Of a DNA stretch of 64,000 bases, positions 13,553 to 59,394 are shown one piece after another. The DNA is from Patescibacteria group bacterium (lineage in GTDB: Bacteria > Patescibacteriota > Patescibacteriia > JAHJFT01), in NCBI GenBank assembly GCA_028710985.1, contig JAQTTB010000001.1:19280-83279 (forward strand), written 5' to 3'. A program made the position numbers and the translations under genes. Numbering within the stretch: position 1 is the stretch's first letter; each line of letters opens with the position of its first letter. The notes under the pieces are model-generated. The model searched no databases. It was not told where the DNA came from and worked only from the letters and a program-made list of their open reading frames with translations.

Positions 13553-13613
13553 ACTCTTGAAATTTTATCTAATATTAGTTAATATATGCCCACAAGCACA
13601 TATATTATCTCCT

Positions 13614-41396: not shown

Positions 41397-41789
41397 ATGG
41401 GCGAAACTATCAAATCATTTGAGGACTTGCTCGTTTGGCAAGAGTCGCACAAGCTCATGATTGACGCTTATGGGTTCGCGGACCGCTATTTGCCGCCGGA
41501 AGAAAAATACAATCGCATTTCTCAAATAAAACGCTGTTCAAGCTCAATCCCTGCCAATATCGCCGAAGGTTATGGTCGATTTCATTTCTTGGAAAATATC
41601 CAATATTGCCGGCAAGCCCGAGGTTCACTTGATGAACTTAAAAACCACATCATCGCCGCCCGAGACCTAAAGCAGGCTCCTCCGGAAGAATGTGCCAAAT
41701 TTATCCAAAAATGCAATTATGTACGGGCTATCCTAAATAACTACATTAACAAAACTCATGATCTCTATATTGAAAATAAGCAAAAATAG
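41397..41789 (+). CDS. four-helix-bundle protein (23S rRNA intervening-sequence protein family)
   Basis: 130-aa ORF: FEDLLVWQESHKLMIDAYGF...RISQIKRCSSSIPANIAEGYGRFHFLENIQYCRQARGSLDELKNHI. Confidence 0.85.
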   Translation: MGETIKSFEDLLVWQESHKLMIDAYGFADRYLPPEEKYNRISQIKRCSSSIPANIAEGYGRFHFLENIQYCRQARGSLDELKNHIIAARDLKQAPPEECAKFIQKCNYVRAILNNYINKTHDLYIENKQK

Positions 41790-41854: not shown

Positions 41855-43021
41855 ATGCCACCAAATTCCCCAAAAAAGAAATTATTGCATCTCATTACTC
41901 AACCAACGTGGGGCGGCGCCCAGCGCTATATTTTTGATTTGGCCTCAAGCCTCAAGGACGAATTCGACATCACGGTCGCGTCCGGCCCGCTTCGCCAAAG
42001 CGAAAGCGAGGCGAGCGAAATTAAGGATGGCCGCGAGCTCCTTGACCGTCTTGAGGCCCAGGGCATAAAGACACGTGTTTTCCCTCACCTTATCCGTGCC
42101 ATCAATCCAATAAGAGATTTGCAGGCTTTTATACAAATCTTCGTATATCTATACGCCAATAAATTCGATACCATCCACTTAAATAGCAGCAAAGCCGGCG
42201 TCCTCGGCTCCATCGCCGCTAATATTCAGTCGGTTCCGAAAATAATTTATACCGCACATGGCTGGGTTTTTAATGAACCCATGCCAACCTGGAAAAAGAG
42301 ATTCTATAAATGGGCCGAACGCCTGAGCGCCAAACATAAAACAAAGATTGTCACCCTTTCCCGTTTAGAAACCGAGATCGGGGTACTTGAGCGCATTGCG
42401 CCGGCTGAAAAATTTGTACAAATCTATCACGGCGTAAAACCGATTGAATTTCTTTCATCCGATCAGGCCCGCGACGAACTAAAAATACCGCGCCAGATTC
42501 CGGTAATCGGTTGCATTGCCAATTTTTATGAAACCAAGGGCCTGGAATATATCGTCAAAGCCTGGCCGCAAATCATCGCCGCAATTCCTGACGCCCAGCT
42601 CGTGATTATCGGCGATGGCGCGCTTCGAAAAAAACTTGAATCGCTGATTAAAAAATTAAATCTTGATGAAAACATTGCGCTTGCCGGCTCCCGGCCCGAT
42701 GCTTCAAAATATTTAAAAGCTTTTGATGTTTTCGCGCTCCCGTCGGTTAAAGAAGGCCTTCCCTACGTGATTCTTGAGGCCATGCAAGCCGGTGTTCCGA
42801 TCGTGGCGACGCGCGTCGGCGGCATTCCAGAGATGATTGAGGACGGCGCAAGCGGCCGGCTCGTCCCGCCGGCTGATTCGGCCGCCCTTGCAACCGCGAT
42901 TATAAAAATTCTGCAAAACAAAAATCTCGGCGAGTCATACGCCGAGAACGCGCGCCAAACGCTGACGCAAAAATTCAGCTTTGAAAGAATGATCGAACAA
43001 ACCCGATCGTTATACAACTGA
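41855..43021 (+). CDS. glycosyltransferase, GT4-like
   Basis: 388-aa ORF: KLLHLITQPTWGGAQRYIFDL...VKEGLPYVILEAMQAGVPIVATRVGGIPEMI. Confidence 0.85.
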   Translation: MPPNSPKKKLLHLITQPTWGGAQRYIFDLASSLKDEFDITVASGPLRQSESEASEIKDGRELLDRLEAQGIKTRVFPHLIRAINPIRDLQAFIQIFVYLYANKFDTIHLNSSKAGVLGSIAANIQSVPKIIYTAHGWVFNEPMPTWKKRFYKWAERLSAKHKTKIVTLSRLETEIGVLERIAPAEKFVQIYHGVKPIEFLSSDQARDELKIPRQIPVIGCIANFYETKGLEYIVKAWPQIIAAIPDAQLVIIGDGALRKKLESLIKKLNLDENIALAGSRPDASKYLKAFDVFALPSVKEGLPYVILEAMQAGVPIVATRVGGIPEMIEDGASGRLVPPADSAALATAIIKILQNKNLGESYAENARQTLTQKFSFERMIEQTRSLYN

Positions 43022-43416: not shown

Positions 43417-45660
43417 TTATTGCCCCGCCTTCGCTTCTTTCTCGTCAATCATTTTCAGAAACTCATCCGTATCCGCGGATATTGAGGGATCCAACTGTTT
43501 GGCAATATTCGCGTACAACCGCGCGAGCTCATACTCCCCGACTTCAAAATATGCCGCCGCAATACCGGCATATAACCGCGGATCGTTTTCATCAATATTG
43601 TCAATCGCAAAATTATAAAGTTCAATCACCCTCGGCATATTGCCGGCTTTAGCATTAAGTTCAACCATCGCCGCCACTTCCGGAAGATTTACCGGATGTC
43701 CGCCGATTGATGCCGATTTTTCAAATGCCTCAAGTGCTTTATCTTCCCACTCGGCCTCATAGTATGCAATACCTAAATTCCACCATGACTCCGTGACATT
43801 GGGATCGAGGTTCACTGTCTCCAGATAATACTGGACAGCCTCATCGGTGCGGCCAAGATTCAAGAGCGCCTTACCGCGCACAAAACGCAACTGCTGACGA
43901 TCGGGAGAATACCTTAGCGCCTCATCAATGTCCGCGAGCGCCTGTTCATGGTGCGTCGGATCAATCTTACCAAGCTCGAGCTGAATCAAGCTCATGAGAT
44001 AATAATTATATATATTCATGGGATGAAGCGGCACAGTTGCCTTTAGCGCATCGTATGATCGCTCAAGATACTCAGCGAGCTCATCGCTTGGCATTTGCAT
44101 TGAGCGGCTAATTTGCGCCATCTCTCGGCTATAGTAAAGAGGAACCAAATCCGGATATTGGTTTGAGATAGCCATGCCTTTTTCAAATGCTGCGGCCGAA
44201 CCTTTATAATCCCCTGCCTGTGACGCAATCACTCCGCTCCGCACCCAGGTGGAAGCAAACGCGGTCCGAAAAGTAAATAAATACAAAACCGCAAACGAAA
44301 AAATTATCAAGACCGCGAGCCACGCTCCGGCAACGGCTGGAGTATTGATAAACAATCTTCCCTCTTTTTTCGGTTCGGTTGTCTCGCTCTGCCACCAGGC
44401 CAGGCAGAAATAAAACATAATCAATGCATTCGGCTGGTCAAAGATAAAAAGATTTTGCACGAAATATCCGATCAGAATTCCAATTGAGCCGCAATAAATA
44501 TGGGTATCGATTTTACCGCCCTTGAAGGCTTTGGTGAGCTGAATGATTATGAGAGCGAATAAGGCGAGATATGCCGCCGTACCGACCACGCCCGTATTAT
44601 TCAGCATATCCATCATCTGGTTATGCGCATGGTCAAACCATGTTTCGTAGAACGAAAACTCCAGTGACTTTGGATTGTAGTATTTATTGAAAGTATAAAA
44701 ATAATTTTCCGGACCCCAACCAAAAACCGGACGCTCCAAGAATCCCTTCCACGCGATTTCCCAAGCAATAAAGCGCGTCGCCGCCGTGCCACCGGTTAAC
44801 GAAATATCTCGGAAGCGATTGAGGCCGGGAACCTGCGCGGTCCAGGCCTGATCTTTAATCAGCCAAAATCCAGCCGACGCAAGGATTATTGCCAAAAATA
44901 TACCCGCGGAAATTATGCGGATCTTTTTATTATTTTTAAGTATTGCGTAAAGCGCGAGATACACGAGCCCGGCGAGAAAAACTCCAACCATTGCGCCGCG
45001 TGTTTCGGCGAAAAGAAAAGCCAAGAACTGTATTGCGAGCATGGCTCCCCACATTGCCTTGGTTGACCACCGCACGGCTTTTTGCAGAAGAACGAGCGTA
45101 ATGAACATAGTGAAAATCAAATACGCAGCCAAGAAAATCGGATTATTCATAAACGCGCCGGTACGAGCGCCGGTTTGCAGCACCAATTCCGGCGCCACGC
45201 GCTGGATAAAAGCGACAAACGACAGCGCCACGCTCACACCCACATTGAAAATTAAAACTTTTTTCCATTCGCGCCAGCCGCGGAAAACCGAAATTGCCAT
45301 AAAATAAAACAGGAGATAATGGAGAAGCGGCCAAAAACCGGTCATACGTTCGTGATAACTCCAGAAGCTGCGATTCGAATCAACGCCAAAAATCACGGCT
45401 AAAAAAAGTCCGATGAAATACGCCGCAAGCCCGTACATAATAAGCGACCGCCGCGGCCGGTATTCCGGCTTGCGCGCGAGAAGATATATATACCACGGCA
45501 ACGCGCTCATGAGCACGATCATAAGATAGACCGTCTTGCCAAAAATATACGGGTAAACCGTCCATGGCAAAAAAATAAACGGCATCACGAGAGCCGCATA
45601 TACGCTAATTTTTACCCACCAATATGCGATGCGGTCCATTGTTTCAAGATTGTTATTCAT
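43417..45660 (-). CDS. O-antigen ligase family (Wzy_C) polytopic membrane protein with C-terminal TPR domain
   Basis: 747 aa: FAETRGAMVGVF...RFIAWEIAWKGFLERPVFGWGPENYF...WFDHAHNQMMDMLNNTGVVG. The last ~250 aa are TPR-like (ALRYSPDRQQLRFVRGKALLNLGRTDEAVQYYLETVNLDPN...). Confidence 0.85.
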   Translation of the reverse strand: MNNNLETMDRIAYWWVKISVYAALVMPFIFLPWTVYPYIFGKTVYLMIVLMSALPWYIYLLARKPEYRPRRSLIMYGLAAYFIGLFLAVIFGVDSNRSFWSYHERMTGFWPLLHYLLFYFMAISVFRGWREWKKVLIFNVGVSVALSFVAFIQRVAPELVLQTGARTGAFMNNPIFLAAYLIFTMFITLVLLQKAVRWSTKAMWGAMLAIQFLAFLFAETRGAMVGVFLAGLVYLALYAILKNNKKIRIISAGIFLAIILASAGFWLIKDQAWTAQVPGLNRFRDISLTGGTAATRFIAWEIAWKGFLERPVFGWGPENYFYTFNKYYNPKSLEFSFYETWFDHAHNQMMDMLNNTGVVGTAAYLALFALIIIQLTKAFKGGKIDTHIYCGSIGILIGYFVQNLFIFDQPNALIMFYFCLAWWQSETTEPKKEGRLFINTPAVAGAWLAVLIIFSFAVLYLFTFRTAFASTWVRSGVIASQAGDYKGSAAAFEKGMAISNQYPDLVPLYYSREMAQISRSMQMPSDELAEYLERSYDALKATVPLHPMNIYNYYLMSLIQLELGKIDPTHHEQALADIDEALRYSPDRQQLRFVRGKALLNLGRTDEAVQYYLETVNLDPNVTESWWNLGIAYYEAEWEDKALEAFEKSASIGGHPVNLPEVAAMVELNAKAGNMPRVIELYNFAIDNIDENDPRLYAGIAAAYFEVGEYELARLYANIAKQLDPSISADTDEFLKMIDEKEAKAGQ

Positions 45661-45661
45661 A

Positions 45662-47620
45662 TTATTTTATTTCAACGGCATTAATATTGTCAAAAACGCC
45701 ACTGATAAAGCGCAGATTAATTTTATTATTATAAATTTCCGCGATGGCGATTCTCACCTCTCCGACAATATAGTCATAAAATGCTTTCAAGTCAAACTGA
45801 TTCGCCTGCGTCGCCCAGTTTGCGCTGCGGAGGAACGCGCCATTCCGATCGAATGATTTTATATATATATTTCCGTCTGTTTTATAAGTAACCAGTATCT
45901 CTTCTTCTTCGCCCGTATCCAAATTTTGCGTCGCAACGAATATTGGCCCCGTGATTTTCTCTGCCGCTTGAAAATTTGAAACCAAGACGCCACTCTTCCT
46001 AAATATCTTAATATGCAAAACACCGGCATCAATAAATCCCACGATTATTTCATCCGTGTCATCGGCATCAATATCTCCAGCCGTGACCGTAACGCCGCCG
46101 CGAAAACCAGAAGTATACGCCATAAAATTACCCTGAATTTCCCCTCTTTCATTAAACACTAGTATATGCGGACCGCCGCCCGGACCCGGCGCGGTGATAA
46201 TTTCATCGTTCACCGTCCGGCTGTCCACATTTCCGACGGCGATATTCACGCCACCGCGGAAAAGCGAATTATACGCAAAAAATTGTCCGTACAATTTCCC
46301 TGTCTCGCTAAAAATACGCACCTGCGGACCGCCGCCCGGACCCGCGCCGACCACAATTTCTTTTTGACCGTCATTATTTACGTCGCCGCTCTGAGCCGTG
46401 AACCCCTTTTTGAAACTATCCGGAAACACCGCGAAGCTATCTTTGACTTCCCCGCCGCTCCCAAGCTCACGGACAACCGGCGTAAAACCAAGCGGCGCAC
46501 CGATTACAAGCGATGAACCGCTCTTTGCCGCTTCAAGCGCCAACTCAAGCGCAGCGCGCGCATCCACGCGCGTTCCCAAGCCTCCGGCAAAATCCGGATT
46601 GATCCCGTCAATTATCACGCCGCTTTTTACCAAAATTTCATTGATTTCACGAGCCGAGAGCCCGGGCGCGATTGATTTCACGAGTGCGGACACGCCGGAA
46701 ACAATCGGCGCCGCAAACGAAGTGCCCGACCAATCGTCATCATAGAATGTATCAAAATCCGCAATTGCCGAGTTATAAACACGCGCGCTCCATATATCCA
46801 TGCCCGGTGCCGAAACATCAACGCAGGCTTTGCCAAAATTTGAAAATTTCGCTTTTTGATCCAACGTGTCGGTTGCCGCGACTCCAAGTACGTATATTTC
46901 ATTCTCATATTGATCAATGCACACCGGAAATTCATCGTACATATCCAAGTTCGAGCCGCCCGATTCGTCCGGCGTATTGCCGGCCGCCGCCACTACTACT
47001 ACTCCCGCTTCCCAGGCGCGGCGCACCGCAGTTGACATATCCTCGCTAAAATTAAAACCTACAAAACTCAAATTAATCACATCCGCACCATTTCGAATGG
47101 CGTAATAAATCGCTTTTGCCACATTGTCCGAGAATCCGTTACCCGTGGCATCGAGCACCTGAAGCGGCATTATCTTGCTCTCCCAGGTGATTCCGGCCAT
47201 GCCGTTCCGATTATTCCCTTCGGCTGCGATGATGCTCGCCACCGCCGTGCCATGGCTAATTCCCTCTTCCGCATATCCGTTGGAAAAATTCGGCAATATA
47301 TTTCCGTTATTATCCGAGAAATTCCATCCATTCACATCATCAATATAATCATTCTTATCATCATCGATTCCGTTTGCCGGAATTTCATCTTCATTGATCC
47401 AAGCATTGCCATCCAATTCCGGATGCGAAATATCCACGGCCGTATCAATCACTGCGACAATCACCTTCGGACTGCCGGTCGAAATATCCCAGGCGCGTTC
47501 GGCATCAATCTGACGCAAATACCACTGACGCGAAAAATCCGTATCGTTTGGGGTGAAAGCCTGCGCGCCTTGAACCGCAACGAATACAAAAATTATTGTG
47601 CAGAATATAAACTTTTTCAC
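45662..47620 (-). CDS. secreted subtilisin-like (S8) serine protease fused to FG-GAP/VCBS beta-propeller repeats
   Basis: 652 aa with a GTG start and signal peptide MKKFIFCTIIFVFVAVQGAQA. Catalytic triad: AVIDTAVD, HGTAVASI, SGTSFAAPIVSG. C-terminal repeats: FxAY...FRGGVxVxxGDxDxDxxDEIIxGxGPGGGPxxxVF. Confidence 0.9.
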   Translation of the reverse strand: MKKFIFCTIIFVFVAVQGAQAFTPNDTDFSRQWYLRQIDAERAWDISTGSPKVIVAVIDTAVDISHPELDGNAWINEDEIPANGIDDDKNDYIDDVNGWNFSDNNGNILPNFSNGYAEEGISHGTAVASIIAAEGNNRNGMAGITWESKIMPLQVLDATGNGFSDNVAKAIYYAIRNGADVINLSFVGFNFSEDMSTAVRRAWEAGVVVVAAAGNTPDESGGSNLDMYDEFPVCIDQYENEIYVLGVAATDTLDQKAKFSNFGKACVDVSAPGMDIWSARVYNSAIADFDTFYDDDWSGTSFAAPIVSGVSALVKSIAPGLSAREINEILVKSGVIIDGINPDFAGGLGTRVDARAALELALEAAKSGSSLVIGAPLGFTPVVRELGSGGEVKDSFAVFPDSFKKGFTAQSGDVNNDGQKEIVVGAGPGGGPQVRIFSETGKLYGQFFAYNSLFRGGVNIAVGNVDSRTVNDEIITAPGPGGGPHILVFNERGEIQGNFMAYTSGFRGGVTVTAGDIDADDTDEIIVGFIDAGVLHIKIFRKSGVLVSNFQAAEKITGPIFVATQNLDTGEEEEILVTYKTDGNIYIKSFDRNGAFLRSANWATQANQFDLKAFYDYIVGEVRIAIAEIYNNKINLRFISGVFDNINAVEIK

Positions 47621-47701
47621 AGGCTAAAAATTCATAAGTTATACGGATATGATACCATTTTTGCGCAAAAAATACACACTCATGCCATCCATCCCCAACC
47701 T

Positions 47702-47739
47702 AAATCCCGCCCCCGGGCGTCCCCAGGGGCGGGATTTTT
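47702..47739 (-). terminator. GC-rich hairpin terminator after the surface-protein gene
   Basis: AAATCCCGCCCC (47702-47713) pairs with GGGGCGGGATTT (47726-47737), with a 12-nt loop and flanking A/T runs. It starts ~40 nt downstream of the stop at 47778. Confidence 0.5.
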
Positions 47740-47777
47740 GAGTTACTGAATATTGCCGATTACTCGGCCAGTCAAGA

Positions 47778-50700
47778 CTAGAAGGTCAATACCACGTTTT
47801 CGGTGAGATCCTTGACGAGATACTCGTCAGTCCAATCACCGGTTGACAACGTATCTAATTGAGCGTTGTGCGGTATTGCCGCCTTGTCTGACCAGACAAG
47901 GTAAGCAGCAACTTCGCCACCCACTACACCGGTTGCATCCAAGTTCGGACCACGTACGGTGCCGACCGCGGCTGCATTCAGGTGATAGGTGTAGATGGTT
48001 GAGCTGCCAGTCTTAATAGTTACGTTAAGCGACTCGCTGGAGCCTGCACCGCCAACCGTACCCTTGAGGGTAAAGATGTGGCCGGAGCCAGAAATGCTCT
48101 GCTCTGTGCCGCTCGTGTAACTAATAAAGATTGTGCCCGAGGCATCGGTTGCGCCTTCAACAGTATTGCCGAGGTTATCAGTGATGGTAACCAAATCGGA
48201 AATATCTGTACCGTCCTGGAACCACTTCAAGGTATCAACCGTGAACGCACCGCTCTTAGTGAATTCGAATGTGAGTTTCGCGACACCCGCATCGCCTGCA
48301 CTGTCTGCGGTAACCTTGGTCTTGTAGAGTTCAATCGTACCGTTGGCCAGGCTCGAGCTAGCTAACGCTTGCTTGGCAAAAGTAAGCTTGGTCTTGCGGA
48401 TAACCATTGGGTTGCCCGCGAGGACCGCCGAGGCCGCCGCGTACACGCGCTCGCCGGACATGGCGCCCGTGCCCTTCACATTGTAACTATTGGTATAGTT
48501 CGCATCCCACTCGCCGGTCGTAACATTGTATTCAACCGCGAGTTTCGGGTTGTTGCCCGAGGTTGCGCCTGCGTCAATCGCGTTCAGCTTGCCAACCACC
48601 TGGAAGGTCACACTGCCGTCAGCCGGCACGGTGATCGGGGTGGAAAGCGTGATGTCGGTCGCCGTCGCCGAACCCGGGAACACATCCGTGCCCGAGGAGA
48701 CGATTACGCCGTCCTTCTGAATCGCGAGGTACTTGAAGTCACTATTTGCGCCGCCGCTATAGCGTTGCAGGCGGATCTTGTCAACGGAGATATTTTCGTA
48801 CTGTGAAGTAATCTTGGCTTGGGCAAAGGTTGTCCAAGCATCCTTACCGGCAATGACAATGTCGGTTGACGGATTTGATTCCGCCGCGATTGTCAATGTA
48901 CCGGAATTCTTCACAGTCTGGAAGATTGTCGGACCGTTGTTGATCGGATTGCTCCAAGTCACGTCGCCGTCAGTCGCAGTAACTGAATTGGCATCTGCGT
49001 CTTCGGCCGAAATATCGGTTTCGAGAGCAATACCGACCCAGAATGTGTCATCCGTACCGCCGGAAGTCGCCACTGAATCAAGTATTGCCTTGACAACCAA
49101 TGTCTTGGTTTCACCCGCCGGAATGCTATAGCTGAGACCGTCAAATGTGGCGGTACCCGCCGTTGCATCCGGGCTCTCGGCCGTGCCGAGCTGAGTCGTG
49201 CCATCCCACAGCGTAAGCTGGGTAATGACATCGTCCAGTTGAGCCGCGGTATAACCCGCACCGTTCACATTGCCCTGACCAGTGACTTTAACGCTCGTCA
49301 CTTTGATTGCGCTCTGTGAACCAGCTGTGAACACAAAACCAGATGAAGCAACATCTGATGTCTTCTTGACATAGGTGTCACTCACCGGAGTCGCGGCCAG
49401 CTGAACTGTCAGACTCGATGTCTTGACCGTCATGGTGTTGCCGGTAATAACCGCATTCGGCACGATTTGGGTTACAGCGAGATATTCGCCTGTGGCATTG
49501 TTCTTCACATAATCGGCAGCAAAGGCATTCAACTTGGCCACATATTGGCGATCGCTGTTGAACCAGGCGTTGTTTGCCACATCGGCCTTGAGGGCCAAAT
49601 TCTTGGTTGTGCCCGCGTTCACATAAAATGAATCGCTAACCACCCAAGTGCAAGTAGTTGCATCCTCACCACAGGCGGGACTTCCGCTTGAAAGTTGAGT
49701 CGGACCGGCGACAACTTCGCCGGAATCGGTATCAACTAATTTGATGTCAGTGAACAGATCTGTGGTGGATGCGTCAATGTAGTCATCACCATTGATACCT
49801 GCCAGTGTGAAGCTGATCTTGCGGACCTCGAGAGTGTTCTCGGCCGCAGTCATGCCAAACTGGAAGAAGATCTGATCCTGGCCGGCCTTTGGCATAGTGC
49901 CAGTCGCCGGACCATTGTAAGCGATCGTCAATTGACCGCCCTCGGTATTCGTGGTTACTGAATCGCCGCTATCAAAATCATCAATGTTCACTGCCGCGCC
50001 CCAGCCATAGGTATTATCTGTGGCATCGACATCGGTAGTGTACTCAAGATAGGTAATGATAGAGCGGCCGCCCTTGCCCACGACATCGGCCTTGACATAA
50101 AGAGTCTTGGTTGTGCCGTTGGAAATGAGATAAGGCGTGGCGAGGATAAAGTTTATCTTATCGCCGACAATTGTCGCTGTTTCGGCCACTAATTCTGTAC
50201 CAACATACAGCTTCAGGTTGGTAACGTCGCTGTTCACGACCGTACCGGCCTGAGCGATGCTGATTTGATTAAGCTTAATATCCGCGCTTGCGGCAGTAAG
50301 CTTAAATGAAGAAATCGTGGCTGCAAGTGATCCAACTGTTACGTTGGCCGGATCTGAACCTTCATTCACCGTCAGAGTGGCGGCATCCTGTGCACCAACC
50401 GTGAAGGTGTTGCCGCGTATCGGGAAACTGCCCGAAACCGTGGCGGTTGTGCCAACCTTACTCGTCGCAACGAGCTCTAGGGCATGTTCATCCGCAGCTA
50501 TTGCGGTTGAACTCAAATCGCCGCGGACCGTGAGATACTTGGTCGTGCCGGCGGTAATCGTCAAGTTCAGGTTGTTGAATTGAGCCTCGTTTGAGCTGGT
50601 ATTGATACTGCGACCGCTCGTCAGTCTTGTTGAACCCTCATAGAGGTAGACGTTCGTGAAGTCGCTCGCTGTACCAACGCCAAGGCGATGGAATGTCAGG

Positions 50701-51557
50701 GTATTAAGAATGACATTGCCGTCCGAGCTCGCGGTCACAGCGACCTTAATAAGCTGCACGCTTGACGAACCCTGGGCGACAGTTGCGCCCGCCGGGGTGT
50801 CAGAGGCCAAGGCCACGGCAAGACCGGTGCCTGTGCCGGAAACGCCGGCTACAAGATCCGTAATGCCCGCTTCACCGCCGGTAACCGCGGTTCCGTCCGC
50901 ATAAGTTACATCGGCCGCGACTGGGCTAATTACGAAACGCCATTGGAACATGTTGGCATCAAATGCCGCCTCGTTCGCAATTGCGCGCTTCTGACCATCC
51001 TGAATGTAGTAGACGGATGCACCAGAAGCATACTTAATCAAGCATCCATTCGGATGCACATAAGTGCTGATTGAGGTGCCGATTGAATAGTTGGTGAAGA
51101 ATGAATCCGGAACGTCAACTACCCAGCTGGCCCAATTTGTTCCCCAGAGTTTCTGGGCAACGGCCTCGGTCTCAACCCAATGCAAAACACCGCCGGTCGT
51201 CACGGCATAAACCTTGGGATCGGTGGTAATTTTGATTAGGAATGTACCTGGGCGGATTGTGATATTTCCGCCGATAGAGACTGCCGCGAGTTCCGCGTCA
51301 GTGATCTCTTTCAGGGTTGAGAAATCGGGGTACCATGAATAATAGGTGTTCTCGTTCGGGAAAACGTATCTCTTACCATCTGCTGCGTAATAATACACCG
51401 CCGGTTGGCTGGCCTTAATAAGGTCGCCTGCGGACAAGGTCGCTGCTTCCGCTGCCAAAGGCATTATGAAAGCCGCAAAACCGATTGACCACGCCATGGT
51501 GGTGATAACTACGCCAACGGTAAGGATCCTCTTTGAAATGCGTAGAACTTCAGTCAT
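47778..51557 (-). CDS. large secreted modular surface protein (S-layer-like or adhesin-like; family not recognised)
   Basis: 1259 aa with signal peptide ...FIMPLAAEA/AT. Three N-terminal ~60-aa modules: PAVYYYAADGKRYVF, PKVYAVTTGGVLHWV, ASVYYIQDGQKRAI. Then repeated T/S/A/G/V-rich ~100-130-aa modules ending ITAGTTKYLTVRGD, ISNGTTKTLYVKADV, VNAGTTKNLALKADV, IPAGETKTLVVKAIL. Confidence 0.7.
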   Translation of the reverse strand: MTEVLRISKRILTVGVVITTMAWSIGFAAFIMPLAAEAATLSAGDLIKASQPAVYYYAADGKRYVFPNENTYYSWYPDFSTLKEITDAELAAVSIGGNITIRPGTFLIKITTDPKVYAVTTGGVLHWVETEAVAQKLWGTNWASWVVDVPDSFFTNYSIGTSISTYVHPNGCLIKYASGASVYYIQDGQKRAIANEAAFDANMFQWRFVISPVAADVTYADGTAVTGGEAGITDLVAGVSGTGTGLAVALASDTPAGATVAQGSSSVQLIKVAVTASSDGNVILNTLTFHRLGVGTASDFTNVYLYEGSTRLTSGRSINTSSNEAQFNNLNLTITAGTTKYLTVRGDLSSTAIAADEHALELVATSKVGTTATVSGSFPIRGNTFTVGAQDAATLTVNEGSDPANVTVGSLAATISSFKLTAASADIKLNQISIAQAGTVVNSDVTNLKLYVGTELVAETATIVGDKINFILATPYLISNGTTKTLYVKADVVGKGGRSIITYLEYTTDVDATDNTYGWGAAVNIDDFDSGDSVTTNTEGGQLTIAYNGPATGTMPKAGQDQIFFQFGMTAAENTLEVRKISFTLAGINGDDYIDASTTDLFTDIKLVDTDSGEVVAGPTQLSSGSPACGEDATTCTWVVSDSFYVNAGTTKNLALKADVANNAWFNSDRQYVAKLNAFAADYVKNNATGEYLAVTQIVPNAVITGNTMTVKTSSLTVQLAATPVSDTYVKKTSDVASSGFVFTAGSQSAIKVTSVKVTGQGNVNGAGYTAAQLDDVITQLTLWDGTTQLGTAESPDATAGTATFDGLSYSIPAGETKTLVVKAILDSVATSGGTDDTFWVGIALETDISAEDADANSVTATDGDVTWSNPINNGPTIFQTVKNSGTLTIAAESNPSTDIVIAGKDAWTTFAQAKITSQYENISVDKIRLQRYSGGANSDFKYLAIQKDGVIVSSGTDVFPGSATATDITLSTPITVPADGSVTFQVVGKLNAIDAGATSGNNPKLAVEYNVTTGEWDANYTNSYNVKGTGAMSGERVYAAASAVLAGNPMVIRKTKLTFAKQALASSSLANGTIELYKTKVTADSAGDAGVAKLTFEFTKSGAFTVDTLKWFQDGTDISDLVTITDNLGNTVEGATDASGTIFISYTSGTEQSISGSGHIFTLKGTVGGAGSSESLNVTIKTGSSTIYTYHLNAAAVGTVRGPNLDATGVVGGEVAAYLVWSDKAAIPHNAQLDTLSTGDWTDEYLVKDLTENVVLTF

Positions 51558-51782
51558 AAATAATTTATATCCTTTTGAATTTAATTCTTATCACGCAAGC
51601 GGCCATTGGCCCCGACCTTTTAGCCTGCGCGTTAATTAACTCTGGTACAAGTTCCGACGCCCCAACATAAAGTTGGCGGTCGGAATCCCGACTTCCGCCT
51701 GCGGCGGAATGTCGGGACATCAGCCCATACCCCGGAAACGGCTTCCATAAAAACCGCCTTCGGGGTATTTCCGATGATTAAT
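51558..51782 (-). promoter_or_regulatory. 225-nt structured leader and promoter region of the surface-protein gene
   Basis: The minus-strand RNA would contain AUACCCCG...CGGGGUAU (51729-51768) and a 14-bp bulged hairpin UCCCGACAUUCCGCC-GCAG-GGCGGAAGUCGGGA (about 51684-51716). A GGAAC box (51655-51651) is a possible ECF-type -35. There is a weak SD, AAAGGA, before the ATG. Confidence 0.45.
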
Positions 51783-52991
51783 TTAATTCGTTACCGCTTT
51801 TGTCGTGGTTGCGGCTCCAGCCACTGCTGGCGTAGATGAAGTCTGAATTACGGGAATGATTGGGTCAGTCGATGAAACCCCAACCGGTTCGGTTATAATC
51901 GGCGTCTCGCTTGCTTCACTCTGATTTTCGGCTCCAACCGCCGAAGCCAGGGTATTCACTTCTTTTACCGCCGCAATCGCCCCGACTAAATCATTATTTT
52001 CCAAAAGTTCCCGTGCCTCCACAACTTTTTCCGCCAGTTGATCGGCAGTCGCGGTTGATGCTCCCGTTACCCCGATAACTTCACCCGTGCCGCTCGCCGC
52101 ACCAGTAATCACCTCTCCGGTCGAAGACGCGGCCTCCGAACCCACCGGGGTAGAAATTACCTCCGCGGTACCCGAAGCGCTCGTTACTCCAACCAACGCT
52201 GCCGCGGCTTCGGCTCTTTCCAGCTTGCTCGTAATTTTTTCAATTACTTCTTCCTCGGTGATTCCTTCGGCCTGACCCTGGGCGTGTTTCTCTACGATGA
52301 CTTCAACGGCCTTAACTGCCGTTACCTCAACAACCGCTTTCGCTTCTTGGACATCATTCTTATTGACATCGGAAAGCTTGTCCATGGTTTCCTGCAATTT
52401 ATTTTCAAACTCTTCAGATTTTTCATCAACGATTTTCGCCACCTCAACCGCCTTCTTTGAAGAACTTTTTTGTTTAATTTCTTCCAGATCATCCTGAACT
52501 GTTTTCATGCCTTTTTTAAAATCCGCCATGGACTTGGTTAGCTTTTCTTCCTTCCTTATATCGGGTTTCTCAATCAACTTAGTCGCTTCTTCCAGCCGCC
52601 GTCCGGCAAAATCAATGCGCAGTTTTGTTTTAACTTCCCGGGCCGGCGAAAGGGTTATTTGCGCGCCTTCGGAAAATAATTTTACGCCGTAAAGCGCATC
52701 ACCCGGCAAGCTGCCAAAAGACGCACTCACTGTCGCGGTCCAGCTGCCAAATACCAGAAATACGATAACCATGGCTGCGACAACCGGACGAAACGCCTTA
52801 GACCAGCCGGTGCTTACATCCACTGCCAATGAAAAATTTTCAAGCAGACTGCCGGTTTTCTCCGCCGCCGGCGCGTCCTGTCTTGCGTGAGCAAGCATGC
52901 TTTCGCGCGTTGACAATACCCAAGCCTCACGCGCTTTGCCGCCCGCTTTCGTCTTACCGAGATTATTCAATTGTTCTACCAATTTATCCAT
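51783..52991 (-). CDS. single-pass membrane protein, putative anti-sigma factor (DUF5667-like ectodomain)
   Basis: 402 aa. A ~75-aa cytoplasmic N-terminus, a TM helix (VVAAMVIVFLVFGSW), then SLPGDALYGVKLFSEGAQITL...KLRIDFAGRRLEE, a coiled-coil and an Ala/Thr/Ser/Gly-rich tail. It starts 9 nt after the sigma-factor stop. Confidence 0.5.
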   Translation of the reverse strand: MDKLVEQLNNLGKTKAGGKAREAWVLSTRESMLAHARQDAPAAEKTGSLLENFSLAVDVSTGWSKAFRPVVAAMVIVFLVFGSWTATVSASFGSLPGDALYGVKLFSEGAQITLSPAREVKTKLRIDFAGRRLEEATKLIEKPDIRKEEKLTKSMADFKKGMKTVQDDLEEIKQKSSSKKAVEVAKIVDEKSEEFENKLQETMDKLSDVNKNDVQEAKAVVEVTAVKAVEVIVEKHAQGQAEGITEEEVIEKITSKLERAEAAAALVGVTSASGTAEVISTPVGSEAASSTGEVITGAASGTGEVIGVTGASTATADQLAEKVVEARELLENNDLVGAIAAVKEVNTLASAVGAENQSEASETPIITEPVGVSSTDPIIPVIQTSSTPAVAGAATTTKAVTN

Positions 52992-53000
52992 TTATCGGGT

Positions 53001-53546
53001 TTATTTATTGTCTTGCTGCTCCATAATTTCACGTAATGCCGCGAGCGAGCGGTGAAGCAGAACCCGCACATTGTTTCCGCTTTTCTGCAAAATACTCGCG
53101 ATTTCGCCAGCTGTCATATTATCCAGATACTTCATCACCACAATCTCGCGATACTCATCCTTTAGTTTATTCAGCGCACGGTAAATCCTCGCCAAGTCAG
53201 ACTGCTTCTCCAGTTCCGCCAGTCCAACGATGTCCACTTCTCCGGCCGTCTCTTCCATGAGCTGAATATCGCTCTTTCTCTGCCGATAATGGTCAATGAC
53301 CAAATTCCGCGCAATTGTGTAGAGTAGGGCTCCCACACTTTTCACCGGCTGGCTGCCTGCAAGATAATCCCAGGCTTTTAAAAAAACCTCTGAACTCAAG
53401 TCTTCAGCTTCTTGTTCCGAGGATACTTTAAAAAAAATAAATCTATATATCTTGGCGCCGTAATCATCATATAACTCTGCAAATGCCCCTGCGTCCTGCT
53501 TCGCCTTGATCTTATAGACCAGTATTTTTTCTTTGAATTTATTCAT
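53001..53546 (-). CDS. RNA polymerase sigma factor, ECF (sigma-70 group 4) type
   Basis: 181 aa. Region 2: FAELYDDYGAKIYRFIFFKVSSEQEAEDLSSEVFLKAWDYL...IARNLVIDHYR. Region 4: EYREIVVMKYLDNMTAGEIASILQKSGNNVRVLLHRSLAALR. Confidence 0.85.
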   Translation of the reverse strand: MNKFKEKILVYKIKAKQDAGAFAELYDDYGAKIYRFIFFKVSSEQEAEDLSSEVFLKAWDYLAGSQPVKSVGALLYTIARNLVIDHYRQRKSDIQLMEETAGEVDIVGLAELEKQSDLARIYRALNKLKDEYREIVVMKYLDNMTAGEIASILQKSGNNVRVLLHRSLAALREIMEQQDNK

Positions 53547-53638
53547 CTATATTGACGATAAGATGATACGAATGTTACACAATCCGCCTTCATTTGTAAA
53601 GTCTTTTAGTCTCAAATTCGGTTAAATCACCCGTTTTC

Positions 53639-53702: not shown

Positions 53703-53999
53703 ATGTCTTCATCCATTCGCTTATCCGTATCCGAAGCCGCCCGGCTTTTTGGCATTAGTGAAAAAACCCTGCGCCGCGCCATCATTAATAAGGAAATCAA
53801 CTATATCGTGGTTGCCGGCCGGTACAAGCTAAATTTTGAAAGCCTGGTCAAGTGGTCCCAGCAAAAAACCACGGTGCGCCGCAAATCCGAAAAATACGGC
53901 ATCGACCAATTTGTGGATAAATGGCGCCTCTCCGCCACCCTCTACTCCCCCAACCCACCCGCCACGGAACAAGAGAACAATTCAACAATACAACAATAG
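53703..53999 (+). CDS. small helix-turn-helix DNA-binding protein (excisionase/MerR-type HTH)
   Basis: 98 aa: LSVSEAARLFGISEKTLRRAIINKEINYIVVAGRYKLNFESLVKW. The C-terminal 11 codons are encoded by the SAACAA word array. Confidence 0.7.
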   Translation: MSSSIRLSVSEAARLFGISEKTLRRAIINKEINYIVVAGRYKLNFESLVKWSQQKTTVRRKSEKYGIDQFVDKWRLSATLYSPNPPATEQENNSTIQQ

Positions 54000-54074: not shown

Positions 54075-55229
54075 TTACGCCGTTTCCAGCGCGAACTTGC
54101 ATTCCGGCTTCAGATCGAAATAAAGTCCGGAAATGTCGCGGCAGATGTCTTTCCAGTTATATTTTTCATTCACGAAAATCTTCGCGCGCGCGCCCAGCTC
54201 TTTCAGATTTTCGGTTTGCGGCAAATACGTCTCAAGCTTACGGATTAAATCTTCAACATTCTTATTTTCAAAACTGATTCCCGCTTCACTCACGACTTCC
54301 ATATTTTCCGGGATATCGCTCGCGATCACCGGCAAACCCCAGCCCATCGCTTCAAGCAAAGCGATCGGCAAACCTTCGGATTCGGACGGATGAACCAGCG
54401 CGTAAGCGTTGCCAAAAAGCGCATTCAACGGCTCGCCGTTCTGAAAACCGGTAAATACAATAGATTCGTCGCCGGCCGCCATCTCATGAAGTTCTTTCAC
54501 GTAATCATCTGTAAAAGCCGAGTCGCCGACGATCACGAGTTTTTTATTGCCAATTATCTCCGGATTACGGAATTTTAGAGTTTTATAAGCATCAATCAAA
54601 TAATGGGCGCCCTTATGACGCACCAGCCGCGAAACCATAATAATATACTCTTTAGGCTCAAGACCAAACTTTTTAAGATACTCGGTGTCGGCCGGATTCT
54701 GCATCCTAACGCCGTTCGGAATATATTGAGTCATGGAATCATAAGCTTCGGAGCAATACTGATTCAAAGTACGCGAAACCGTAATGGTGCGGTCCGCGAA
54801 ACGGCACGCTGACCATTCGCCAAGGCGAAGCATAGCGCGGGCAATAAATCCCCATTTTTGATGCTTGCGATCAATGCAGTGAAAAGTCACCACCACTTTG
54901 GTGCTGGGTCGCAAAATTTTCGGAAGCCACGAGAGTAGCGCCGGCCCGACGCCGTGAATGTGGATAATCTCAAAACCGCTCCGGCAGGCATGAATAATGC
55001 TCAAGAAAGTATGGCTAATGGCATCAAGATGCTTGGTCTTAAGGCTCGGGGTATAAATAAGATGCACCCCGTTAATCTGTTCCTCGTGGCCCTTTGAGTA
55101 CCACGGGCGACAGTATACAAAAACCTCCAGGCCGAGTTCAGCCAGGCCGCGCGAAAGCTCATCCACGTGGCGTTCAATACCACCGAAGATAGCCGGGATG
55201 CCTTTTTGTCCGATCATTGCTATTCTCAT
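54075..55229 (-). CDS. glycosyltransferase, GT4-like
   Basis: 384-aa ORF: MRIAMIGQKGIPAIFGGIERHV...ESEGLPIALLEAMGWGLPVIASDIPENMEVV. Confidence 0.85.
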   Translation of the reverse strand: MRIAMIGQKGIPAIFGGIERHVDELSRGLAELGLEVFVYCRPWYSKGHEEQINGVHLIYTPSLKTKHLDAISHTFLSIIHACRSGFEIIHIHGVGPALLSWLPKILRPSTKVVVTFHCIDRKHQKWGFIARAMLRLGEWSACRFADRTITVSRTLNQYCSEAYDSMTQYIPNGVRMQNPADTEYLKKFGLEPKEYIIMVSRLVRHKGAHYLIDAYKTLKFRNPEIIGNKKLVIVGDSAFTDDYVKELHEMAAGDESIVFTGFQNGEPLNALFGNAYALVHPSESEGLPIALLEAMGWGLPVIASDIPENMEVVSEAGISFENKNVEDLIRKLETYLPQTENLKELGARAKIFVNEKYNWKDICRDISGLYFDLKPECKFALETA

Positions 55230-55442: not shown

Positions 55443-55664
55443 TTACCGTTAAAGTCAAAATGGAACAGTCGTATCTTATGACAAATTTTGGCTAAAGCAA
55501 GCCCTTTACAACCTTCTCCCAAGCGTCGAATCTACATTTTCTGGCTATTTTCAGCAATGGTTGGCACACAGTTCAACCCCACCTGCTCGGCTTATATTAT
55601 GCAGATTCATCGCTTAGGAGAAGCAAAACAACCTAAACGCAAAAAACACCGAGGAGGGTGTAAA

Positions 55665-56699
55665 ATGAAGAACTCCAGGATAGTGCTGATTCTCTGCGCC
55701 CTGGTACTGATGGCCTGCGAGACGAGGTACGTGGACGTGGGCGGCGAGCCCGACACCTCCATCGACACCGCGTCCGACAGCGTGGAGCTCTGCTCCGACG
55801 GCCTGGACAACGACATGGACGGCCTGGTCGACTGCAACGACAACGACGGCGACGAGAACTGCCCGCCGTGCGCGGACGCGTCAACCGACGCCGTGGCCGA
55901 CGAGATCGAGGACAGCGCAGAAACCGACGTCCCGCCCGTGGAGCTCTGCTCCGACGGCCTGGACAACGACTTCGACGGACTCGTGGACTGCAACGACGGG
56001 GACGACTGCTGCGATGAAGCAGTGTGCGTTACGAGCGAGCACTGCGCTTCGGAAGACGCTTCAAGCGACTCCGAAGAGGAAGCCGACGCAGTCTCCGACT
56101 CGGGTGCGGATTCGGATCCCGCCGAGGACCCCGTGCCTGACACTGATCCCGACACCGCCTCCGACCCGGATAGCGCAAGCGATCCGGACGCGGTCTCTGA
56201 CCCGGACGTGGTGGACGCCGAAGCCGACGCAGCTGACATCCTCCACTCCGGCCTGGCCACGTTCAAGTGGTGCCGGCCCATGACCATGGCGCGCCCCGAC
56301 CACATTCTCGCGGAATGCTTTGTCTGGGGAAGCCTCTATGAAAGCTGGGATGACTCCTGGGAGCTGGCAACCGGCTCTCCGGACTTCGTCGCACCGGCCG
56401 ACAGCGACTGCATCGAGTTCACCCTGCCAGATCTGGATTACACGCTCCTCGGAATAAGCGTAGAGTGCAACATCACTGCCTATTCCGACTCGGCGTACGG
56501 GCCGTGGGGACGCATCTACGCTCTCGGCGAGTGCACGTGCGGCGGCAGCTGTGTCGTAAAAGGCACGCTTACCGTCCGTTCCGGTCCCGACGCTGATGAC
56601 GCAACCGCCTTGGATCTCACGAGCCTAGTCGTGCAGAATCCGCGATGCGCGTCCCTGAGCGACCAGGCCGGCAACTACGTCCTCTCACCTATTCCATAG
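55665..56699 (+). CDS. GC-rich secreted lipoprotein with two TSP3-like Ca-binding Cys/Asp repeats and a poly-acidic linker
   Basis: ATG at 55665 is preceded by GAGGAGGG. Lipobox: [18 protein letters not shown]. Repeats: [29 protein letters not shown] and [24 protein letters not shown]. Then a D/S/P/A-rich linker and a ~160-aa Cys-containing C-terminal domain. The ORF-track TTG start at 55488 is rejected. Confidence 0.75.
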
Positions 56700-57498: not shown

Positions 57499-59394
57499 TT
57501 ATGGACGGACTTTTCCAAGACCCGCCGCCCGCGTGTCATGCGCAAGCTCGGTCGTAATCAACGGAGTGGCAAACGACAAATCTTTACCGATAAATTCATC
57601 ATGCGCCGTCACCTTTATCCAGTCAACGAGCGACGCCGCCGTGCCCGCCTGATCCGCGGTCGGCACAATTTCCACCTCAAAGCTCAGGCCGATCACGGCC
57701 CCGGATTCAGCTGTGGCCGAAAGCTCTTTAAGCGACCAGGTTATCATTCCGGTGTCCGGATTATAATTAATGCTGTCCCCGGCCGTCACGCTTGAAAGCC
57801 CGGCATATGTAACATTCGGGGCAAGTTTTGCCTGCAGAAACATGTTGGTCAGATCGCTTGTGGTTTTTGGCAAATTCCAGAAAACCCAATACTTGGTCGG
57901 TCTCTCGACCTTGGGCGGCATGGAACCACGGCCAAGCTGATCACCGGTTTCGGCCCAATAACGCGCGAATGCCTGACTCGCGAACGGCGTTATCATTTTT
58001 ATATCAATACGTCCAGTTTTATAAACCGCAGCCCCTTCTTCCCCTTCAACGCGGTAACTCGCCAAAACCGCGACAGGCATTGTTATATTCTTCTGCGACT
58101 CGAGCTGTGAAAAATCCGGATTACTTTTTAGATATAAGGCGCCGGATACTTTTTTTGTCTCGCCCGGCGCAAGGCCTGCCGCACTTTCTTTAAAATAAAA
58201 TCTTCCATCGCGAAATTCCATTCCCTCGATGCGCGCCGTATTTATTAAATAAGCATCGGCTTCAACCGCGAGAGCGACGTCGGAAAGCGCAAAGTCGCCA
58301 ATATTTTTATACGATACCACGACATCCATTTTCTCGCCCCAGCCGGCAACCGGTTCGGATGTATCATTTATACGTATAACCGCTTCAATCTGCGGCGGAA
58401 CAATCTGCGCCGAAGCGGCTAAAATCTCCTGGCGCGCTTTCTCTTCACCCGCGGTTACGTATGTTTCGAAATAAAAATTCGCGCGGCTGTCCGGACAGGC
58501 AAGATAGCCGCGAATTGTAATCTCACCCTCTTTCCCGGCCTCAAGGTCGCCAATTCTAAAAACATTTTCTAACATAGGGAGCGATGAACTCAAGTATTCA
58601 AACCCGGCGGGCCAATACGCGTGAACCTCAGCATTCACGAGAGCGGCGCTTCCTGTATTTTTATATTTAATCTTAACATCAATATCCTGATTATTTATCA
58701 GCTTTTCCGGAGCCTCAAGCTCGGCCCAGAACACGGAATCATCTATAGTATAGCTTGCGGTGAACGGCTTCTGCTCATTCTTGCCGTTCTCGGCCTGTGT
58801 GAATCCGAGCGTTGACCAGACGGTTTGTGAATCTCCAACCGTGCCCCAAACGCGTCCATGCAAACGCAGTCTCCCCTCTCCCCCTGGGGGCAGGGTTCCG
58901 ATATCCACAATATTTTTTGTTGCGTCGGTCTGCGCCGGAATCGTATCTAAAAGTTGAAAATTATTCGGCAGCCTGAAACTCCAATAAGCCTCGTCAAGTA
59001 TTGATTCCGAATCGTTCCGGTAAACCCAGACCACGCTCACTTCTCCGCCGCTCACGATCTCCTGCGGCATAACTGCGGTATCAATATGAATCTTGTCGGC
59101 AATCGAAGGCTTGTAAAAATAAATAAGTGTGACAAAAACCGAGAGCGCAATAATGAGTCCTAAAAGCGCCATATCCACCCAGAAAAGAATTTTGGCGCGC
59201 TTGTATTTGCCTTCATAGCGCGTTTCATAATGATCGCGAAGCCGCGAGGTAATGGCTTTCGCCGGCTGTAAGGCCACATTCAGTGTCCCAATAAAAATAT
59301 TACCTCGTCCTTTGTCGGCCGCGGATTTAAATTCCTGCGGAGTCATAACATCTTCCGACACATTGGTTAAATCAGTTGTTTTTTCTTCTGGCAT
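57499..59394 (-). CDS. single-pass membrane protein with repeated CARDB/DUF11-like beta-sandwich modules (hypothetical)
   Basis: 631 aa with a TM helix (ILFWVDMALLGLIIALSVFVTLIYFY). Repeated segments resemble IGTLPPGGEGRLRLHG, IGDLEAGKEGEITIRG and LAPGETKKVSGALYL. Confidence 0.55.
   Translation of the reverse strand: MPEEKTTDLTNVSEDVMTPQEFKSAADKGRGNIFIGTLNVALQPAKAITSRLRDHYETRYEGKYKRAKILFWVDMALLGLIIALSVFVTLIYFYKPSIADKIHIDTAVMPQEIVSGGEVSVVWVYRNDSESILDEAYWSFRLPNNFQLLDTIPAQTDATKNIVDIGTLPPGGEGRLRLHGRVWGTVGDSQTVWSTLGFTQAENGKNEQKPFTASYTIDDSVFWAELEAPEKLINNQDIDVKIKYKNTGSAALVNAEVHAYWPAGFEYLSSSLPMLENVFRIGDLEAGKEGEITIRGYLACPDSRANFYFETYVTAGEEKARQEILAASAQIVPPQIEAVIRINDTSEPVAGWGEKMDVVVSYKNIGDFALSDVALAVEADAYLINTARIEGMEFRDGRFYFKESAAGLAPGETKKVSGALYLKSNPDFSQLESQKNITMPVAVLASYRVEGEEGAAVYKTGRIDIKMITPFASQAFARYWAETGDQLGRGSMPPKVERPTKYWVFWNLPKTTSDLTNMFLQAKLAPNVTYAGLSSVTAGDSINYNPDTGMITWSLKELSATAESGAVIGLSFEVEIVPTADQAGTAASLVDWIKVTAHDEFIGKDLSFATPLITTELAHDTRAAGLGKVRP

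Follow-up and report, generated by a model that had tools for sequence, protein, structure and literature searches.

A conserved surface-protein gene cassette with a structured leader RNA in Patescibacteria, a candidate S-layer glycoprotein locus

The closest described counterparts of the locus reported here are the slg loci of Paenibacillus alvei CCM 2051T (SpaA, WsfA-WsfP) and Geobacillus stearothermophilus NRS 2004/3a (SgsE, WsaA-WsaP). WsfB joins a Wzy_C domain to a C-terminal tetratricopeptide repeat (TPR) domain, which has been proposed to recognise the protein; WsaB is a Wzy_C protein with a separate TPR partner, WsaA, and PglL also carries a C-terminal TPR (PMC2943079). The slg loci include an asparagine-synthase homologue (WsfA), a WbaP-type initiator and glycan genes below the genome G+C; S-layer genes are monocistronic, and sgsE adjoins the glycan cluster in Geobacillus (PMC2943079). 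O-oligosaccharyltransferase genes lie beside those of their acceptors in 21 of 31 cases (PMC3643930). We analysed a 64,000-nucleotide (nt) stretch of contig JAQTTB010000001.1 (the window), from a Patescibacteria genome of Uhrbacteria type, in which five consecutive minus-strand genes (43417-53546) include that of a large secreted protein. The original prediction, which took the five for one surface-glycoprotein unit and knew of no characterised system with such a composition, had overlooked the slg loci of P. alvei and G. stearothermophilus (PMC2943079). On balance we consider it probable that the locus represents, in Uhrbacteria/Patescibacteria, the kind of S-layer (major surface) glycoprotein locus known from Gram-positive bacteria.

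Translation of the open reading frames (ORFs) and Pfam searches placed all five genes, with their domains, where they had been predicted (lengths in amino acids, aa):

43417-45660, minus strand: polytopic Wzy_C enzyme with C-terminal TPR, 747 aa, candidate O-oligosaccharyltransferase (Wzy_C 3.8e-20, TPR_2 1.9e-17)
45662-47620, minus strand: secreted subtilisin (S8) with an FG-GAP-like C-terminal region, 652 aa (Peptidase_S8 2.6e-44)
47778-51557, minus strand: large secreted surface protein, 1259 aa, no Pfam match
51783-52991, minus strand: DUF5667 single-pass membrane protein, 402 aa, presumed anti-sigma factor (DUF5667 1.9e-11)
53001-53546, minus strand: extracytoplasmic function (ECF, group 4) sigma-70 factor, 181 aa (Sigma70_r2 6.5e-12, Sigma70_r4_2 7.3e-14)

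With the slg loci the window shares an apparently monocistronic secreted surface-protein gene near a glycan cluster, a Wzy_C enzyme with C-terminal TPR (as WsfB), an initiating transferase, an asparagine-synthase homologue, methyltransferases and low-G+C glycan genes, and the split Wzy_C/TPR form (WsaA) has a counterpart in a distant relative (L092). It differs from them in its phylum, in having a new three-module domain and no S-layer homology (SLH) anchor, in using Wzx instead of an ABC transporter, in keeping the transferase gene immediately 3' of the structural gene, and in the ECF sigma/DUF5667 pair and structured leader RNA; moreover, the system is known here from its genes alone. The pilin O-oligosaccharyltransferases (PilO/TfpO, PglL-ComP, PglS, TfpM) are likewise encoded beside their substrates in the same orientation and have the same Arg/Arg/His catalytic residues (PMC3643930, PMC9829042), whereas the presumed substrate here is a 127-kDa multi-domain wall protein, the host is of monoderm type and the enzyme bears a long TPR extension.

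We then compared gene order across 80 species-level loci, all ORFs of which were translated and scored against the window proteins; the denominators of 72 and 63 used below are the loci having sufficient flanking DNA. Three neighbouring genes enter this comparison:

41855-43021, plus strand: GT4 glycosyltransferase, convergent, closing the cassette (Pfam, synteny)
53703-53999, plus strand: divergent gene of an HTH_17 DNA-binding protein, 98 aa (Pfam HTH_17 1e-07)
54075-55229, minus strand: GT4 glycosyltransferase upstream of the cassette, kept in many loci (Pfam, synteny)

The ECF sigma gene is adjacent in 72 of 72 loci and the DUF5667 gene in 71 of 72. The Wzy_C-TPR gene lies directly 3' of the large gene in 57 of 63 loci and inside the locus in 60, and an opposite-strand GT4 gene closes the block after Wzy_C in nearly all. 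The HTH_17 gene, divergent and upstream of the sigma gene in 46 of 72 loci, belongs to the neighbourhood as a sixth member. In a distant lineage, at 30% identity, sigma, DUF5667 and large genes are still grouped, and in another (L092, 31% identity) the Wzy_C-TPR gene still directly follows the large gene. One might suppose that the five genes are co-located in a polysaccharide island by chance, with no specific functional link, the window being so packed with glycan genes that any gene has glycan neighbours; the synteny counts refute this, since the core order is fixed in ~70 species-level loci, down to 30% identity, while the glycan genes around it differ between loci, and we give the idea hardly any credence. 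The S8 protease, in contrast, is found in only 4 of the ~80 loci besides the window's own subclade. Overall, the conserved unit consists of the ECF sigma factor, the DUF5667 protein, the large protein, the Wzy_C-TPR enzyme and the convergent GT4, and not of the five genes originally proposed: four of these do co-occur in relatives down to 30-31% identity, as had been expected of all five, and the protease falls outside.

The large protein belongs to an extensive family. We detected 1146 homologues, almost all of 1260-1340 aa with full-length coverage and 42-69% identity, and those with named sources come from Patescibacteria or Uhrbacteria. A scan of one genome per species, in which a single-protein query returned nothing and an alignment query was needed, found a relative encoded in at least 580 species-representative genomes. 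Searched against representatives of 50%-identity clusters, residues 236-1259 matched 2284 clusters at E≤0.001 and 496 at E≤1e-30, most of the 2284 being collinear across ~1000 residues with lengths of 1100-1450 aa. The architecture is strictly kept, with many invariant residues along the whole chain. No match to the protein was found in Pfam, NCBIfam or PDB sequences. Its parts are:

Residues 1-37: signal peptide (Sec, cleavage AEA|ATL)
Residues 38-235 (50853-51446): three alpha/beta modules, the candidate anchor
Residues 236-1259: array of immunoglobulin (Ig)-like beta-sandwiches

The mature protein, of 127 kDa and with an isoelectric point (pI) of 4.4 (family median 5.0), has no C-terminal anchor. 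It contains 13.2% Thr (3.7 times the content of the neighbouring enzymes), 22% Ser+Thr, three Cys (0.2%) and 0.7% Met, a composition that is acidic, rich in Thr, Ala, Val and Gly and poor in Cys and Met, as in S-layer proteins. Signal peptide, pI and Thr content bear out the prediction of a secreted, cell-envelope-type protein of S-layer-like composition, and its repeats are likewise there. G(T/E)TKxLxV(K/R) recurs at residues 337, 481, 649 and 815, in four modules (A-D) that are alike at z = 5-9 relative to shuffles; the N-terminal ~60-aa modules form a related set of three (m1-m3 at z ~7, m2-m3 at ~4, m1-m2 more weakly at ~2.5). The structure, modelled with AlphaFold2 on two overlapping halves, was confident for both (predicted local distance difference test, pLDDT, of 85.7 and 90.4; predicted template modelling score, pTM, of 0.76 for the C-terminal half). 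The Foldseek search against the PDB, suggested as a check together with structure prediction, returned only generic Ig-like arrays for both halves (PrgB, integrin legs, antigen I/II, SafA).

These best structural matches, adhesin stalks and integrin legs such as the Ig-like domains of PrgB, the C-domains of antigen I/II and SafA, would suit a wall-anchored, stalk-like adhesin, glycosylated or not, for attachment to a host or surface. Patescibacteria are mostly episymbionts, and Kuroda et al. take similar highly expressed proteins as host-attachment factors (PMC10936435). Host-specific adhesins are, however, usually far more variable than a protein whose length and collinearity are strictly kept over ~1000 residues in hundreds of species. 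Single copy per locus, S-layer-like composition and a C-terminal half modelled as a compact multi-domain body and not a rod also speak against an adhesin, which we think quite improbable. Glycosylation and lattice formation remain candidate roles of the large protein, for which the S-layer glycoprotein reading is the best available.

The N-terminal modules (38-235) match no Pfam family. The domain they form recurs in over 600 further Patescibacteria proteins (150-350 aa), one of them in the same genome, with cupredoxin, Big_1, TSP_3 and CAP-like domains as fusion partners; two paralogues sit in pentose-phosphate operons. In a collinear homologue of the large protein, PG_binding_1 (residues 78-142) replaces the N-terminal modules. 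Because the domain recurs on other secreted proteins and is exchanged for PG_binding_1, we infer that the N-terminal region anchors the large protein to the cell wall and that such anchors have been swapped in evolution.

The 747-aa enzyme has the predicted Wzy_C domain (PF04932, residues 207-365, 72.6 bits for a cut-off of 31.7) within ~12-13 hydrophobic segments, and matches to TPR_2, TPR_8, TPR_1 and TPR_11 at residues 570-650. With a thirteenth hydrophobic segment ahead of it, the TPR domain seems to lie outside the membrane. In 59 orthologues, with ~28% identity to the window enzyme, R221, R282, R296 and H346 are at least 95% conserved, and their spacing matches, by position and not by structural superposition, that of the essential residues of WaaL (R215/R288/H338) and PglL (R224/R298/H349) (PMC3643930). 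The proposed tie between this enzyme and the large protein is thereby upheld by adjacency and by the retained catalytic Arg/Arg/His, and its candidate role as a protein O-oligosaccharyltransferase has, by analogy, good precedent.

The genes that could supply a glycan to this enzyme lie further 3' of the cassette:

7109-41254: glycan-biosynthesis island (Pfam, composition)
13536-14993, plus strand: Bac_transf initiating transferase (Pfam)
16055-17308, plus strand: Wzx-like flippase (Pfam)
27081-28913: AsnB (asparagine-synthase) homologue (Pfam)
36334-37338, minus strand: radical SAM/SPASM enzyme among the glycosyltransferases

Further glycan genes of the window encode GtrA, GT4 and GT2 enzymes, six methyltransferases, epimerases and DUF218. 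The 16 glycosyltransferases counted originally hold as 12 GT4-type enzymes, 3 GT2 and 1 Bac_transf phosphoglycosyl transferase (Pfam). With this phosphoglycosyl transferase, the glycosyltransferases and the Wzx flippase, the window is predicted to encode a complete lipid-linked glycan pathway, in agreement with the glycan-building role first given to the flanking genes. The island centre (16000-40000) has 35-42% G+C, compared with 48-56% in the flanks, a pattern described for the strain-specific parts of slg and O-antigen clusters, which hints at lateral acquisition. A radical SAM/SPASM enzyme is unusual in a glycan cluster; its substrate could be a sugar or a peptide.

The Wzy_C family includes ligases and polymerases besides protein transferases, and Wzx, here accompanied by a single Wzy_C protein, normally partners a polymerase. 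The enzyme might then polymerise or ligate a secondary cell-wall glycopolymer to which the N-terminal three-module domain binds, gene adjacency reflecting ligand and receptor as with SLH domains and csaAB in Bacillus. That domain behaves like a generic anchor, present on many secreted proteins, which would agree with this idea, as would L092, in which two side-by-side Wzy_C genes fit a polymerase and a ligase. Yet the Wzy_C-TPR gene still directly follows the homologue anchored by PG_binding_1, a domain that binds peptidoglycan and not a special polymer, and the anchor-domain paralogues elsewhere in the genome are not beside Wzy_C genes. The combination of Wzy_C with a C-terminal TPR, moreover, matches the S-layer transferase WsfB, and the very high Thr/Ser content of the large protein offers plentiful O-acceptor sites. 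We regard the glycopolymer alternative as unlikely, if deserving of more weight than an adhesin.

The large gene is framed by two further elements, a structured leader and a GC-rich hairpin, both of which had been predicted, the leader with the same 225 nt; the hairpin lies at ~47702-47737:

51558-51782, minus strand: leader of the large gene, 225 nt, with two hairpins after the anti-sigma stop codon, then the conserved RNA motif
51592-51631, minus strand: core of the RNA motif, with helix P1 (CGCGCAGGC/GCUUGCGUG), 5' bulge AAGGUCG (51613-51619) and hairpin P2 (GGCC-AAU-GGCC)
51576-51580, minus strand: AUUCA box of the window leader, downstream of the motif core
47702-47737, minus strand: GC-rich terminator-like hairpin (AAAUCCCGCCCC...GGGGCGGGAUUU) 3' of the large gene

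The leader is conserved at the nucleotide level despite only ~43% protein identity. AAGGTCG is present in 69 of 69 leaders (77 sites were collected), and the motif stands at a median of 114 nt ahead of the start codon; in distant lineages AAGGTCG or AAGGGTCGA is retained in the leader. Over the window as a whole the 7-mer is not enriched, with 10 copies for 6.3 expected. The AAGGUCG bulge lies on the 5' side, between the outer helix P1 and the hairpin P2, the opposite (3') strand having few unpaired bases or none, and single-sequence minimum free energy folding gave this P1-bulge-P2 architecture in 61 of 67 leaders, compared with 4.5% of flank-shuffled controls. An AUUCA-type box follows the motif at 55 of the 77 sites, versus 8% of shuffles.

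Since MAFFT failed to hold the helices of the motif in register, a covariance model (CM R1) was built from seeds of normalised length, with GAAA standing in for the apical part of P2, the statistics being taken from real sequences. Run over 1.55 Mb of related loci, it recovered ~45 real leaders, and it scored the window copy at 17.4 bits. In the real-sequence alignment 95.8% of cells are paired, double changes occur in 10 of 10 pairs and the covariation score is 0.742, compared with 0.23 when shuffled and at most 0.19 with the partners slid, figures that are somewhat inflated by the fitting of the alignment to the structure. Rfam gave no match at the gathering score over the whole window, and for two leaders chance-level matches alone at E≤10. 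The leader motif is a structured RNA new to Rfam.

Several roles for the motif were considered and rejected. The covariance model finds it only before the large gene, with nothing convincing elsewhere in the 1.55 Mb and no copy at the anchor-domain paralogue loci, which speaks against a regulon. Pairing of the bulge with CGACCUU at ATL/GDL codons of the ORF was discarded as codon choice there equals gene-wide usage, and a complement of at least 7 nt for long-range pairing exists in just 6 of 63 loci. Nor is AAGGTCGA the -10 element of an ECF promoter, given that it stands anywhere from 18 to more than 24 nt away from the conserved block upstream and that its flanks covary as helices. We infer that the motif is the binding site of a factor controlling mRNA stability or translation.

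Main-clade leaders (e.g. L015, 9742-9870) have extra upstream helices, CAGGGCG/CGUCCUG, with a compensatory change in L007, and their G-rich ACGGGCGGGGGAA can pair alternatively with UUCCCCCGC, CGCCCGCUCGU or AUCCUCGCC, a possible conformational switch. In L013, L007, L020, L034 and other main-clade loci a hairpin AACCC-loop-GGGTT is conserved, ending 3 nt before the ATG of the large gene, and may sequester the ribosome-binding site; the window subclade has instead a plain AAAGGA ~13 nt upstream of the start.

Behind the large gene, 60 of 73 loci have a strong GC-rich hairpin with a U-tract; among shuffles the share is 25%. With its own leader upstream and this hairpin downstream, the large gene looks like a separate, tightly framed transcription unit.

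The sigma factor has Sigma70_r2 and Sigma70_r4_2 as its only Pfam domains, as in group 4, and scores 87.3 bits against NCBIfam TIGR02937 (sigma70-ECF, cut-off 42.9). Its partner starts 9 nt downstream, the position of a cognate anti-sigma factor, and has one transmembrane segment (residues 70-88) with DUF5667 beyond it (93-206), so that the ECF factor and single-pass protein with a DUF5667 ectodomain are as predicted. The partner gave no Pfam anti-sigma or zf-HC2 match, and its 69-residue N-terminal segment lacks an HxxxCxxC motif; we presume that it is the anti-sigma factor. A literature search found no paper on DUF5667 or on an ECF/DUF5667 pair. In the ECF pairs SigW-RsiW and BldN-RsbN, as here with a two-domain sigma factor of 181 aa, a single-pass membrane partner is encoded downstream, and a GTAAC/CGTC-type promoter-like element precedes the sigma gene here in several clades; the difference lies in a partner without a recognisable anti-sigma domain, whose ectodomain is DUF5667. 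The predicted promoter elements upstream of the sigma gene are:

53554-53579, minus strand: ECF-type promoter-like element TGTAAC-N16-CGTC, 7 nt upstream of the sigma start codon
53639-53667: perfect sigma-70-type promoter of the HTH_17 gene, TTGACA-17-TATAAT (12/12 in the promoter scan)

TGTAA(C/T)-N16-CGTC also occurs in the subclade loci L085-L087 and in the distant loci L073, L075, L078 and L082, and is not evident in the main clade. Kept in the subclade and at these distant loci, the element would fit autoregulation of the sigma gene. An ECF-type promoter common to the sigma gene and the large gene was looked for and rejected, none being found upstream of the large gene in the window or the loci examined. 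The control of the large gene by the ECF pair, part of the original prediction, is consequently an unproven proposal, based on synteny, the invariable adjacency of the genes.

In the S-layer glycoprotein reading, the N-terminal modules would hold the large protein on the cell wall, with the Ig-like array as the exposed layer. An oligosaccharide linked to undecaprenyl phosphate would be started by Bac_transf, extended by the GT4 and GT2 enzymes and flipped by Wzx, and outside the membrane the Wzy_C-TPR enzyme would move it en bloc to Ser, Thr or Tyr of the large protein, which the TPR domain would recognise as proposed for WsfB. The leader RNA, with its AAGGUCG bulge between two helices, would set mRNA stability or translation via some factor. 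The DUF5667 protein would sense the envelope and free the sigma factor, which would at least autoregulate, and in the window's subclade only the S8/FG-GAP protease would trim or mature the layer.

Several points weigh against this reading. The fold matches of the large protein are generic Ig-like arrays common to adhesins, and the codon usage of its gene (effective number of codons, ENC, 45.3) carries no mark of high expression, codon bias having been set aside as an uninformative expression proxy. Sequence does not separate O-oligosaccharyltransferases from glycopolymer ligases and polymerases (PMC3643930). The full-length 747-aa enzyme matches the solved WaaL weakly (E = 0.002), and the match disappears with the membrane part alone; WaaL was dropped as a structural reference because the match is too weak and unstable. 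The membrane side of the TPR domain is deduced from the thirteenth hydrophobic segment only, and the missing ECF-type promoter of the large gene counts here as well. In favour of the reading, hexagonal S-layers have been modelled in a preprint from Patescibacteria proteins of 1131-1274 aa (bioRxiv 10.1101/2024.05.28.596244); these published candidates are comparable in size range, signal peptide and Ig-like domains, a likeness of description that need not mean homology. In cultured Paceibacteria the genes with the highest expression include those of large proteins that have a signal peptide and peptidoglycan-binding domains (PMC10936435); the homologue of the window protein with an N-terminal PG_binding_1 resembles them. 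The published candidates differ from the window protein in that none is from Uhrbacteria and in that a context of sigma/anti-sigma pair, Wzy_C-TPR enzyme and RNA leader is not described for them.

New here are the leader RNA motif, the candidate anchor domain and how well the cassette is conserved within an uncultured phylum. Taken jointly, they could mean that the cassette encodes the S-layer glycoprotein made by one major branch of the candidate phyla radiation (CPR), with a new wall-binding fold, and that its leader is a new class of cis-regulatory RNA (AAGGUCG(A) bulge, main-clade alternative pairings), read by some factor so as to couple layer synthesis to the envelope state sensed by DUF5667/ECF; we put this combined picture forward tentatively, as possible and well short of probable. 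Patescibacteria account for much of bacterial diversity and almost none are cultured; to our knowledge, the surface molecules that mediate their host attachment are essentially unknown. The cassette, which hundreds of species retain, offers concrete targets in a candidate major surface glycoprotein, a candidate glycosyltransferase, a putative new wall-anchoring domain, a dedicated sigma/anti-sigma pair with an uncharacterised DUF5667 sensor and a new structured RNA. If the S-layer glycoprotein reading is true, S-layer O-glycosylation of the Paenibacillus/Geobacillus type extends to a deeply branching phylum, and the large protein could serve as a marker or antigen for enriching Patescibacteria cells.

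The protease itself is a clear S8 enzyme (PF00082, 152 bits, residues 52-333), in which the motifs VIDTAVD, SHGTAVAS and GTSFAAP give a complete D/H/S triad. The FG-GAP part of the predicted fusion is less firm, its Pfam matches being weak and below the cut-off. The gene lies between the large gene and the Wzy_C gene in the window and in L085, L086 and L087 only (three relatives at 52-69% identity), is absent from that position in the main clade and is a lineage-specific accessory of the window's subclade. In Clostridioides difficile the secreted cysteine protease Cwp84, which has CWB2 repeats and is encoded near the S-layer gene, matures the SlpA precursor. The S8/FG-GAP gene is possibly analogous, the difference being that it encodes a subtilase with an FG-GAP-like domain and is confined to one subclade.

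Two distant loci show rearranged cassettes. In L089 (1987-7493) it appears split into a sigma factor, a weak DUF5667 protein (281 aa), an anchor-domain protein (302 aa) and an overlapping 865-aa protein, with AAGGGTCGA followed by a hairpin in the leader. In L092 (10524-14914) the PG_binding_1-bearing homologue is followed by the Wzy_C-TPR enzyme, a second Wzy_C protein without TPR and a separate TPR_19 protein, an arrangement that recalls the WsaA/WsaB split of Geobacillus. Many cassette-bearing genome records are titled 'uncultured Gammaproteobacteria bacterium' (third party annotation, TPA, assemblies), one Methylomirabilis and one Halanaerobium; these titles are probably placeholder or mis-binned labels.

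Small 23S_rRNA_IVP (four-helix-bundle) genes occur at the cassette edges, in the window at 41397-41789 (plus strand), in L086 at 17571-17951 and in L087 at 11976-12353 and 18337-18723, one of those in L087 being inserted between the large gene and the protease. The window contains no tRNAs. Upstream of the cassette, on the minus strand, are genes of a DUF11 protein (631 aa, 57499-59394) and of a GHL15 plus FG-GAP protein (720 aa, 59412-61574). A GHL15/FG-GAP protein of ~670 aa is found upstream of the cassette in ~19 related loci, and the S8 protease has a similar FG-GAP-like region. Note that the ORF at 59412-61574 overlaps that at 61453-62694 (minus strand) by ~120 nt, its TTG start being probably over-extended. 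A 403-aa ORF at 55488-56699 (plus strand), in a locally G+C-rich stretch and overlapping a 232-aa ORF on the opposite strand, has no Pfam match; rich in Asp, Ser and Cys, with two CSDGLDND(M/F)DGLVDCND-like motifs and (A/P/V)(S/T)D(P/S) runs, it looks like a secreted calcium-binding-type repeat protein.

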